Shown: piece by piece, positions 41,685-44,750 of the stretch
Layout: every line of letters starts with the position of its first letter
Position numbering within the stretch: position 1 is the stretch's first letter
Virus record (IMG/VR): IMGVR_UViG_2908567220_000008
Coordinates: 1-45,074 of that record
DNA: 45,074 nucleotides
From: a virus
Taxonomy: Duplodnaviria > Heunggongvirae > Uroviricota > Caudoviricetes
Reading direction: 5' to 3' (one strand)
Program-made: the position numbers and the translations under genes
The notes under the pieces: model-generated
The model's database searches: none
Seen by the model: the letters and a program-made list of their open reading frames with translations, nothing else
Told to the model about the DNA's origin: nothing

Positions 41685-42968
41685 ATGGACAAAAGATATA
41701 ATACCGGCAATCCAAGACCTTCAAATAGCATGAAGGATCTGAATGATAACGCCCTGGCGTACGATGATTTCCTGAACAGCGAAAGCGATACTTTTATAGA
41801 TCGTTTTGGTAACGCCCAGGATACGATAATTGGGGCTACTAAAAAAATGGCAGCTGCTACCGACGCTGTTATTGATGAAGCCCGCCAAAACCTGATCCCT
41901 CTCAGCCGGCAATACATGACGCTGGCAGCGTCGCAGGCGGATATAGCGAATATCCCGGTGGGTTCTACCACGTATTACCGCAGCCCTGACGATAGCGCGC
42001 TGGCTATTGAAGTAATTAACAATGGTGGCACTCTTGAGCCCACCGGTAGAAAAATGCCATCTAAGAAGTATGTAGATGATGCTATTGATCCCTACTCTCC
42101 TTTGTTAAATATAACACAGGCGTCAGAGTTCTTTCCTCCTGATGAATATAAAGATTCTGGGGTGGAAGAGGCTATACTAGATGAAAATAAAAAAATACTA
42201 CTATCCAGGAAAGGTGTCGAGTGGTTTTTCCAAAAAATCAGAGCGGGGGAAATCAGCGCAGATCAATTCGCTGCTGAAATCCTTTCAGGAAACGACATTT
42301 TAATTTCCGGGCAGAGCCTTCTTGGAATCGTTCCTTTTTTACAGGCTTCGACTTTTGTCGATATATCTGAATTTTCGGATTCAGGGTATGACTCAGCAAC
42401 TTTTTCTGAAAACAATAGAATTATTGTTGGCATTAAAGGCACCACCATTTATTTTAGCAAAATTGTTGTTGGCGATGCGGTAATTGAAGGAAGCGATTTT
42501 ACAGAGGTAAAGGGTGTTACTGACGCATTATCACCTCTTCCAGAGTCAGTAACGTTTCTCTCACCTGATGAGTATGCAGATAGTGGATACATTTCTGCAT
42601 CCACATCTGAAAACCTGGTTGTTATCGAGTCGCTGAAATCATCGGACCTGACAAATTCAGGTCAGCCTGATTACATTGCATTTAGCGAAGAGAAAGAAGG
42701 CTATGAGCAGATTTTCCTGTTTGATCGCGATACAGGTCAGCAGGTTCGTGTAACCAATACATCCAGTAATGAAACCTTGCCACGCGTTGATGGTGATAAG
42801 GTTATCTGGCAATCGGACAGGGAGACTAATCGCGCACCGGGTGGGCAGTATTATTGCTATATCAATGATCTGACTGAGCACTCTGTAATGTCCAGGCCGA
42901 TCATTTGCGGGTGGGGCCATTCAATGGTTGATAACCCCCGTATGCTGACACGCCTGCAGGAGCTATGA
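41685..42968 (+). CDS. Tail fibre / receptor-binding-like protein, C-terminally truncated by IS3
   Basis: ATG at 41685 with RBS aggaacagg; the frame opens at 41616. The stop TGA (42966-42968) is the first three bases of the IS3 left inverted repeat. AT-rich. Confidence 0.4.
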   Translation: MDKRYNTGNPRPSNSMKDLNDNALAYDDFLNSESDTFIDRFGNAQDTIIGATKKMAAATDAVIDEARQNLIPLSRQYMTLAASQADIANIPVGSTTYYRSPDDSALAIEVINNGGTLEPTGRKMPSKKYVDDAIDPYSPLLNITQASEFFPPDEYKDSGVEEAILDENKKILLSRKGVEWFFQKIRAGEISADQFAAEILSGNDILISGQSLLGIVPFLQASTFVDISEFSDSGYDSATFSENNRIIVGIKGTTIYFSKIVVGDAVIEGSDFTEVKGVTDALSPLPESVTFLSPDEYADSGYISASTSENLVVIESLKSSDLTNSGQPDYIAFSEEKEGYEQIFLFDRDTGQQVRVTNTSSNETLPRVDGDKVIWQSDRETNRAPGGQYYCYINDLTEHSVMSRPIICGWGHSMVDNPRMLTRLQEL

Positions 42969-43030
42969 TCTTACCCAGCAATAGTGGACACACGGCTAAG
43001 TGAGTAAACTCTCAGTCAGAGGTGACTCAC

Positions 43031-43330
43031 ATGACAAAAACAGTATCAACCAGTAAAAAACCCCGTAAACAGCATTCGCCTGAATTTCGCAGTGAAGCCC
43101 TGAAGCTTGCTGAACGCATCGGTGTTACTGCCGCAGCCCGTGAACTCAGCCTGTATGAATCACAGCTCTACAACTGGCGCAGTAAACAGCAAAATCAGCA
43201 GACGTCTTCTGAACGTGAACTGGAGATGTCTACCGAGATTGCACGTCTCAAACGCCAGCTGGCAGAACGGGATGAAGAGCTGGCTATCCTCCAAAAGGCC
43301 GCGACATACTTCGCGAAGCGCCTGAAATGA
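43031..43330 (+). CDS. insE: IS3 transposase OrfA (HTH)
   Basis: [50 protein letters not shown]... matches IS3 InsE as recalled. Confidence 0.9.
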
Positions 43331-44193
43331 AGTATGTCTTTATTGAAAAACATCAGGCTGAGTTCAGCATCAAAGCAATGTGCCGCATGCTCCGGGTGGC
43401 CCGCAGCGGCTGGTATACGTGGTGTCAGCGGCGGACAAGGATAAGCACGCGTCAGCAGTTCCGCCAACACTGCGACAGCGTTGTCCTCGCGGCTTTTACC
43501 CGGTCAAAACAGCGTTACGGTGCCCCACGCCTGACGGATGAACTGCGTGCTCAGGGTTACCCCTTTAACGTAAAAACCGTGGCGGCAAGCCTGCGCCGTC
43601 AGGGACTGAGGGCAAAGGCCTCCCGGAAGTTCAGCCCGGTCAGCTACCGCGCACACGGCCTGCCTGTGTCAGAAAATCTGTTGGAGCAGGATTTTTACGC
43701 CAGTGGCCCGAACCAGAAGTGGGCAGGAGACATCACGTACTTACGTACAGATGAAGGCTGGCTGTATCTGGCAGTGGTCATTGACCTGTGGTCACGTGCC
43801 GTTATTGGCTGGTCAATGTCGCCACGCATGACGGCGCAACTGGCCTGCGATGCCCTGCAGATGGCGCTGTGGCGGCGTAAGAGGCCCCGGAACGTTATCG
43901 TTCACACGGACCGTGGAGGCCAGTACTGTTCAGCAGATTATCAGGCGCAACTGAAGCGGCATAATCTGCGTGGAAGTATGAGCGCAAAAGGTTGCTGCTA
44001 CGATAATGCCTGCGTGGAAAGCTTCTTTCATTCGCTGAAAGTGGAATGTATCCATGGAGAACACTTTATCAGCCGGGAAATAATGCGGGCAACGGTGTTT
44101 AATTATATCGAATGTGATTACAATCGGTGGCGGCGGCACAGTTGGTGTGGCGGCCTCAGTCCGGAACAATTTGAAAACAAGAACCTCGCTTAG
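43327..44193 (+). CDS. insF: IS3 transposase OrfB (DDE catalytic domain)
   Basis: 288 aa matching IS3 InsF as recalled; normally expressed as an OrfAB fusion by -1 frameshifting. Confidence 0.9.
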
Positions 44194-44210
44194 GCCTGTG
44201 TCCATATTAC

Positions 44211-44750
44211 GTGGGTAGGATCACATCAGGGATGACAAATTATCTGTATACGTTCTGGCTGAAAGTAACAGGTGCTGCTGCTGCTACTTCCAACTCATTC
44301 CTGGTGGCTCTGACAAATGGCACACCCAGTAACGCAGCGAACACGCTGTTTTGGCTGCGCCCGACATTCTCTTCCACAACTGCCGCGAGCGCATTGCAGG
44401 TGATTAACCACGGAGAGGTGATTAATGCGTACTCATTCCTGTCAGGGCTTTTTGATGGGAATGTCCACCAGGTTGCTGTTGAGCGCGTAGTTTCTTCTGA
44501 TGGAACAATGCAGAAATCGCGCCTCTACCTTGATGGCGTACTGAAGTATGAGAGCTCATTCTCAGCGATTGTTGCTTATCCGGCAGCAATTACTCTGGCG
44601 CGGCTGGGGGATGCTGAAATAACAACGACATCACTCTCGGTGAATGGTGGAGTGTATCGCTGTCGACTAGATGACCTGACGCTAACAAGTAAAAATGCCT
44701 TCGAGATTCTTTCAGATGACATCAACCTGGTTAATGGGCGCTATAGCTAA
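44211..44750 (+). CDS. Fibre-like C-terminal fragment downstream of IS3
   Basis: Track ORF starts at an ATG inside the IS3 right end; the non-IS part (44224-44750) is a 175-aa beta-rich segment ending ...LVNGRYS. May be a remnant of the interrupted fibre gene or a separate gene. Confidence 0.35.
   Translation: MGRITSGMTNYLYTFWLKVTGAAAATSNSFLVALTNGTPSNAANTLFWLRPTFSSTTAASALQVINHGEVINAYSFLSGLFDGNVHQVAVERVVSSDGTMQKSRLYLDGVLKYESSFSAIVAYPAAITLARLGDAEITTTSLSVNGGVYRCRLDDLTLTSKNAFEILSDDINLVNGRYS

Follow-up and report, generated by a model that had tools for sequence, protein, structure and literature searches.

The window analysed here, which is the whole 45,074-nucleotide stretch of the viral record IMGVR_UViG_2908567220_000008 (positions 1 to 45,074), carries a complete copy of the insertion sequence (IS) IS3 in the distal receptor-binding cassette of a prophage. 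Very probably, the arrangement consists of an ordinary IS3, itself intact, next to an IS-associated deletion of 1,109 bp in that cassette. The missing segment comprises the end of one gene, here called gene 1, and the start of the next, here called gene 2. The features on which this reading is based are as follows.

42,966 to 44,223, plus strand: complete IS3 of 1258 bp, with the transposase in the direction of the flanking genes
41,685 to 42,965, plus strand: gene 1 remnant, codons 1 to 427 of a tailspike-like receptor-binding protein of 704 amino acids (aa)
42,963 to 42,965: left flanking triplet CTA, which directly precedes IS3 and is codon 427 (Leu) of gene 1
44,224 to 44,226: right flanking triplet CAT, which differs from CTA
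44,224 to 44,750, plus strand: gene 2 remnant, part of a gene for 268 aa that is kept from base 2 of codon 93 up to its stop

Two truncated genes beside an intact IS3

A query made of 700 bp from each flank joined together was searched in 5,426 complete Escherichia coli genomes. Both flanks were present in 7 of the 5,426 genomes, in each case in two pieces separated by about 2.5 kb and with no IS. Strains B18271 (locus L001) and 22F46 (locus L002) showed a 704-aa gene 1 followed after one base by a 268-aa gene 2, and the annotations in those strains were 'TolB family protein' for gene 1 and hypothetical for gene 2. The gene 1 part of the window was collinear with L001 bases 5420 to 6700 (99.7% identity). 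The left breakpoint lies after L001 base 6700, which is gene 1 codon 427, and on the right the retained sequence starts with L001 base 7810, which is position 2 of gene 2 codon 93, while reference bases 6701 to 7809 are absent from the window. In every one of the six relatives that have both flanks and no IS (6/6, complete genomes and viral contigs), the flanks were exactly 1,109 bp apart. This segment was made up of 831 bp from the end of gene 1, the single spacer base, and 277 bp from the start of gene 2.

The reading frames of the window agree with this comparison. The upstream open reading frame (ORF) starts with an ATG at 41,685, codes for 427 aa, and is stopped in frame by the TGA at 42,966 to 42,968, which is formed by the first three bases of IS3. 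The open frame that leaves IS3 on its right side (44,211/44,232 to 44,750) is the native frame of gene 2. Both host frames are in phase 0 in window coordinates, while in the relatives the frame of gene 2 is +1 with respect to that of gene 1 (2113 bp from start to start). The host frames coincide in the window because gene 2 is already shifted by +1 and the net change in length, -1109 + 1258 = +149, equals 2 modulo 3. A direct repeat of 2 to 7 bp around IS3 was looked for at both flanks and none was found, and CTA and CAT are equal at only one of three positions in register. The absence of the 3-bp duplication is explained by the origin of the flanks from sites 1.1 kb apart. The host sequence that follows CTA in the relatives is ACCGGCTAC... 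and the junctions, observed in the window or predicted for an undeleted precursor, are as follows.

Left junction as observed: CCTGCAGGAGCTA joined to TGATCTTACCCAGC
Right junction predicted for a precursor in gene 1 with a CTA duplication: GTGGGTAGGATCA joined to CTAACCGGCTACACGG
Left junction predicted for a precursor in gene 2 with a CAT duplication: CAATGATTGCCACAT joined to TGATCTTACCCAGC

Judged by alignment with the relatives, the flanks correspond to parts of two separate adjacent genes, both truncated, and not to the two halves of one gene. An earlier note, made from the letters of the window, had described a complete 1258-bp IS3 in a fibre-like gene, with its first three bases as the stop codon of the upstream ORF, an open frame out of its right end, unequal flanking triplets and host frames in one phase. 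All of these features were found again at the positions given above, and the alignment of both flanks to intact relatives, which that note proposed as a check, revealed the deletion and the two-gene origin. Its fibre-like gene stood for the left flank, which is tailspike-like; the right flank is the separate gene 2, also truncated. Its suggestion of a rearranged junction, by adjacent deletion or by recombination between IS3 copies, is supported by the 1,109 bp missing in comparison with the six IS-free relatives.

Two simpler explanations were ruled out. A simple insertion into one gene with a degenerate duplication draws solely on the fact that imperfect duplications occur at some IS3 copies, for example the ATC/ACC of IS3C in strain K-12. 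The single matching position between CTA and CAT speaks against a degenerate duplication, and the absence of the 1,109 bp together with the two-gene flanks leaves this explanation practically no probability; no degenerate target duplication exists at the site. The second explanation, IS3 placed between two complete genes that are naturally adjacent, is right in that the flanks belong to two different genes. Its probability is negligible as well, because both genes are truncated in comparison with all relatives, gene 1 being short of 277 codons and gene 2 of 92, while 11 viral contigs and four phages from GenBank have both genes full-length and abutting. The natural boundary between the genes lies inside the deleted segment and not at the point where IS3 now stands.

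The element itself is IS3 by every defining feature tested except the 3-bp target duplication. Its parts are listed below.

42,966 to 43,004, plus strand: left terminal inverted repeat (IRL), complementary to the right end at 29 of 39 positions
44,185 to 44,223, plus strand: right terminal inverted repeat (IRR)
43,031 to 43,330, plus strand: orfA, InsE-like, 99 aa, intact
43,327 to 44,193, plus strand: orfB, InsF-like with a DDE transposase domain, 288 aa, intact
43,293 to 43,297, plus strand: A-AAA-G programmed -1 frameshift motif in the orfA/orfB overlap region

The termini read TGATC...GATCA, and the outer tips, TGATCTTACCCA...TGGGTAGGATCA, form imperfect inverted repeats of the 5'-TG...CA-3' type, with 29 of the first 39 terminal positions complementary between the ends. 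The Pfam domains HTH_Tnp_1 and rve were found on the called IS3 products, and the frameshift role of the A-AAA-G motif is established for the IS3 family (summarised in PMC11708052). Five copies of K-12 MG1655 were compared (L009, at NC_000913.3 315229-316483, and L010 to L013). The copies IS3B to IS3E served for calibration, while IS3A, which is without its first 3 bp, was set aside. The window IS3 differs from the full-length copies IS3B, IS3C, IS3D and IS3E by three substitutions, at IS positions 27, 200 and 422 (99.8% identity over 1258 bp), and shares with them the ends, the orfA/orfB layout, the A-AAA-G motif and the length of 1258 bp. The identification is far above chance, since 99.8% identity to a known IS extends over the full 1258 bp. 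The window copy is complete and potentially active, as far as its ends and frames indicate. IS3 matches were present in 4563 of the 5426 complete E. coli genomes, with a median of three places per genome.

The arrangement is real and did not arise in assembly. CP024978.1, the chromosome of the porcine enterotoxigenic E. coli (ETEC) strain CV839-15, which was assembled from PacBio 8-10 kb libraries and Illumina reads, contains the window with 100% identity. The left junction was found at draft contig ends of GCA_022976335.1 and GCA_001615305.1, about 100 bp into IS3, and the right junction at the start of another GCA_022976335.1 contig, 122 bp into IS3. The exact 427-aa product was called on six public contigs and the exact 172-aa product of the gene 2 remnant on six. 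A PacBio-based chromosome and both junctions in independent drafts point to an allele inherited in a small lineage and not to an artefact. A collapse of two IS3 copies around a 1.1-kb segment into one during assembly is scarcely credible. Drafts built from short reads are interrupted at IS3 and do not by themselves exclude a collapse, but the 8-10 kb libraries of CP024978.1 span both the 1.26-kb repeat and a 3.6-kb composite, and the two junction-specific truncated products are equally frequent.

The receptor-binding cassette and its remnants

The remnant of gene 1 keeps the N-terminal anchor, the central domain, and the first 20 or so residues of an SGNH esterase domain, including Ser413. The anchor is encoded by the following module.

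41,685 to 42,062, plus strand: conserved module of some 125 codons at the 5' end of gene 1, a virion-attachment domain common to full-length prophage relatives

Residues 5 to 135 matched many phage receptor-binding protein PHROGs and also Klebsiella and Escherichia phage proteins, and 76 Klebsiella phage records had matches to gene 1 (tblastn). The central domain gave weak matches to beta-propeller repeats. In the intact protein, residues 408 to 702 matched tail-fibre PHROGs and the solved 'tail spike protein' chains 9sij/9sim (E = 1e-47; 9sij_A, 1.6e-47). These chains are likely those of the epsilon15 tailspike, judging from construct lengths and residue numbering and not from a statement in the text. 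Residues 411 to 702 aligned with residues 785 to 1068 of epsilon15 gp20 (38% identity, BLASTP 1e-45). The 'petal' domain of gp20 is reported in a 2026 preprint to be an SGNH esterase that de-O-acetylates O-antigen galactose, and its Ser787 and His1038 were mutated there to probe the esterase site (bioRxiv 10.64898/2026.07.31.742079). In the alignment, Ser787 corresponds to Ser413 of gene 1 and His1038 to His667, and both gene 1 residues are present in the intact relatives.

The likeness to epsilon15 gp20 lies in an SGNH domain placed at the C-terminus of a phage receptor-binding protein, with the mutated Ser and His conserved. Unlike gp20, gene 1 is without the beta-helix endorhamnosidase body and has a different N-terminal anchor and a central domain with weak matches to propeller repeats; epsilon15 also has no gene 2 homologue downstream of its tailspike. 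The protein further resembles the SGNH-hydrolase receptor-binding proteins of temperate Klebsiella phages (PMC13123978), which are modular, occur in prophages, and combine interchangeable N-terminal domains with SGNH C-terminal domains, whereas the host here is E. coli. A term search of that paper (PMC13123978) found no mention of a paired lectin-fold gene 2.

Gene 1 stands after Mu gp45-48-like baseplate genes and a fibre gene. Its homologue in PEAT2 likewise follows baseplate genes, and those in JZBo1 and Gungnir39 are annotated as tail spike. Membership of the TolB family was rejected, since TIGR02800 scored 26 bits against a cut-off of 343 and covered residues 293 to 380 only; the RefSeq name 'TolB family' thus reflects a few propeller-like repeats and not a membership. 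A Pfam search of gene 1 and gene 2 gave no matches, and an NCBIfam search of the two genes gave only propeller repeats far below threshold.

The gene 1 product of the window ends at Leu427 and is without the GRN block, His667 and about 275 residues of the SGNH domain. Codons 428 to 704, with the catalytic His, are deleted, and the catalytic pair of Ser and His is incomplete in the window copy and complete in the intact relatives. The window copy is, as read from its sequence, a dead remnant of a member of the SGNH-esterase tailspikes, which bears out the suspicion in the earlier note that the receptor-binding gene is inactivated.

The gene 2 remnant keeps the predicted core of a concanavalin-A-like lectin fold, while the N-terminal 92 residues and the start are lost; its longest ATG-initiated ORF lies at 44,232 to 44,750 (172 aa). 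A scan for promoters and terminators at the right junction of IS3 showed no convincing hybrid promoter, with counts near the shuffled expectation, so outward activation or expression of the gene 2 remnant is unsupported. No match to gene 2 was found among the Protein Data Bank sequences. A single-sequence search for gene 2 homologues gave one cluster, and an alignment-based search was used instead. Homologues of gene 2 were found directly 3' of gene 1 homologues in Pectobacterium phage PEAT2, Klebsiella phage JZBo1, Erwinia phage Gungnir39 and Paracoccus phage Pyei1, and the two genes were adjacent in all 11 viral-contig loci with a gene 2 relative (11/11). Gene 2 is a predicted lectin-fold partner of gene 1. 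Because this order recurs in the four phages and the 11 loci, the deletion takes out the point at which the two genes of a conserved receptor-binding module meet.

The cassette of the window is expected to be non-functional because gene 1 loses most of the SGNH domain, including His667, and gene 2 loses its start and 92 codons. Any particles produced by the prophage would probably be devoid of this receptor-modifying spike. In an annotation, the ORFs of 427 aa and 172 aa are to be labelled pseudogene remnants, not proteins. Beyond annotation the event has little importance, and the intact cassette module is the more useful by-product of the comparison. The intact module, an SGNH-esterase tailspike with its predicted lectin-fold partner, moves among unrelated Escherichia, Klebsiella, Pectobacterium, Erwinia and Paracoccus phages, and the recurrent pairing of such a tailspike with an uncharacterised gene of predicted lectin fold is only mildly new.

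Possible routes to the deletion

The event is a textbook IS-associated deletion of a class already known, with no departure from known biology. Two hallmarks of an adjacent deletion were found: the sequences at the two ends of IS3 are non-contiguous in the IS-free relatives, where they lie 1,109 bp apart (n = 6), and IS3 is complete, with no duplication and no long endpoint homology. The only similarity at the breakpoints is a 2-bp microhomology, CA, which forms the last two bases of IS3 and also precedes the right breakpoint in the relatives. The missing duplication is unremarkable in itself, because only two of the five IS3 copies of K-12 MG1655 have a perfect one, namely IS3B (ATC) and IS3E (GTC), while IS3D is flanked by CAC/AAA. 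The 3-bp duplication marks a simple insertion event and not the element. Its absence beside an IS3 is a reliable flag for a hidden deletion.

Within the IS-associated deletion, the route by insertion followed by adjacent deletion is favoured, with a little better than an even chance. IS3 would first have inserted normally, with a 3-bp duplication, at one of the two breakpoints, either at CTA in gene 1 or at CAT in gene 2. An intramolecular event driven by the transposase and anchored at one end of IS3 would then have deleted the adjacent DNA, removing one copy of the duplication as well and leaving IS3 intact. In the long-term evolution experiment (LTEE) with E. coli, the deletion events of IS150, a member of the IS3 family, that were examined were without a duplication in 14 of 14 cases, and all arose by insertion and then adjacent deletion; a duplication was likewise absent from every event in that experiment that combined an IS with a deletion (PMC11708052). 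The arrangement in the window resembles these 'IS-del' events and the IS3 deletions on plasmid pYK-1N5, in which the IS is intact, the abutting DNA is lost, and there is neither a target duplication nor significant endpoint homology (here the 2 bp CA). Unlike the LTEE events, it comes from a natural isolate without a time series, so neither the precursor insertion nor the direction in which the deletion ran is observable.

The sequence alone is compatible with insertion and adjacent deletion, with recombination between two copies, or with one-step capture. The second of these, a sub-route of the same overall picture, is possible but clearly less likely than the favoured route. Two IS3 copies would have inserted in direct orientation, one after CTA and one before CAT, each with its own duplication, and homologous recombination between them would have excised the 1.1 kb and one IS copy. 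This predicts the exact structure that was found, with a single IS, CTA on the left, CAT on the right and reference bases 6701 to 7809 gone. Recombination between IS copies is also a documented cause of missing duplications (PMC11708052), and IS3 is multi-copy in E. coli, as the median given above indicates. The route is less parsimonious in that two independent insertions of the same orientation within 1.1 kb are needed, and no genome with either single insertion was found among the 5,426 complete E. coli genomes. The ancestry of the two flanks was compared on the rationale that different closest relatives for each flank would favour IS3-IS3 recombination between prophages. Divergence from the relatives was about 1% on the right and about 0 to 0.2% on the left, and the differences were mostly polymorphisms shared among alleles; the changes unique to the window numbered one in the right flank and two in the left, and the comparison favours none of the routes.

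In the third route, IS3 would have been captured in one step into a double-strand break or deletion intermediate, and a duplication would never have existed. Such a model has been proposed for IS5 and IS481 (PMC11708052), and both the missing duplication and the position of IS3 exactly at the centre of the deletion fit it. The route is unlikely here, given that every IS150 deletion was traced to a prior insertion (PMC11708052) and that no sequence feature demands a single step. A broader proposal has only a slim chance and is not indicated by the data: a one-step capture that is independent of transposase cleavage and leaves no target-site duplication, and/or a loss of the spike under selection in the ETEC lineage. 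If true, the capture would show, for IS3 and in a natural isolate, a mechanism that is still contested. A selected loss could reflect, for example, a conflict of the esterase with an O-antigen acyltransferase encoded 400 bp upstream, or the immobilisation of the prophage that results from the loss.

Several points weigh against the reading of an IS-associated deletion that inactivated the cassette, and against the favoured route to it. The precursor, with IS3 at one breakpoint, an intact duplication and no deletion, was not found. Neither junction occurred in the 5,426 complete E. coli genomes, where the matches covered the IS3 half only and no record reached at least 80% coverage. What happened first, and at which breakpoint IS3 originally inserted, is therefore unproven; the draft assemblies with the junctions carry the same final allele. 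The flanks cannot separate a one-sided adjacent deletion from recombination between IS3 copies. The loss of function is deduced from the loss of domains, and the spike may not be essential for infectivity, because the prophage also encodes a 261-aa glycine-rich fibre.

Prophage context

The prophage is of the myovirus type and lies next to yecD/aspS, with an integrase at its left end. The order at the tail end is Mu gp45-, gp46-, gp47- and gp48-like baseplate genes, the 261-aa fibre gene, an Acyl_transf_3 gene (minus strand), a 95-aa gene (minus strand), gene 1, and gene 2. The structural module was found in one piece (at least 80% covered) in 16 complete genomes, and the best match was gap-free with 99.5% identity. 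Those prophage matches stop at about 42,046 to 42,068 of the window, near codons 121 to 128 of gene 1, and different distal genes follow in both relatives examined (L003 and L004). The distal cassettes consist of a 626-aa 'SGNH/GDSL hydrolase' and a 251-aa gene in Ec1117, and of 774-aa and 460-aa genes in isolate 2015-01-2097. As these alignments present it, the layout is that of a classic modular receptor-binding protein, in which the virion anchor is conserved and the distal part can be exchanged. Codons 121 to 128 or so of gene 1 mark a recombination hotspot for exchange of the receptor-binding module.

The neighbouring genes upstream of gene 1 are the following.

39,465 to 40,250: glycine-rich fibre gene, 261 aa, ending in '...YLEEFS*'
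40,229 to 41,320, minus strand: Acyl_transf_3 gene, O-antigen acetyltransferase-like, in an island of 34-36% GC
41,320 to 41,607, minus strand: 95-aa ORF, divergent from gene 1, PHROG 20491, kept in relatives

The acyltransferase gene is likely a lysogenic-conversion moron, and it lies about 400 bp from a gene that, when intact, is predicted to remove O-acetyl groups. The 95-aa ORF gave a weak, sub-threshold match to RstR-like repressors (E = 0.08) and may regulate the moron or the cassette.

At the right end of the prophage, the window departs from L001 at about 44,965 to 44,992. A 72-aa ORF at this right end (44,856 to 45,074) closes with '...ILEEFA*', and its last 84 bp (44,991 to 45,074) copy the 3' end of a glycine-rich fibre gene and match L002 10542-10625, which is annotated as a partial glycine-rich protein. 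The divergence looks like a second recombination scar, and it could be the relic of an invertible fibre segment, since genes for DNA invertases, or fragments of them, lie nearby in the relatives L001 and L002.

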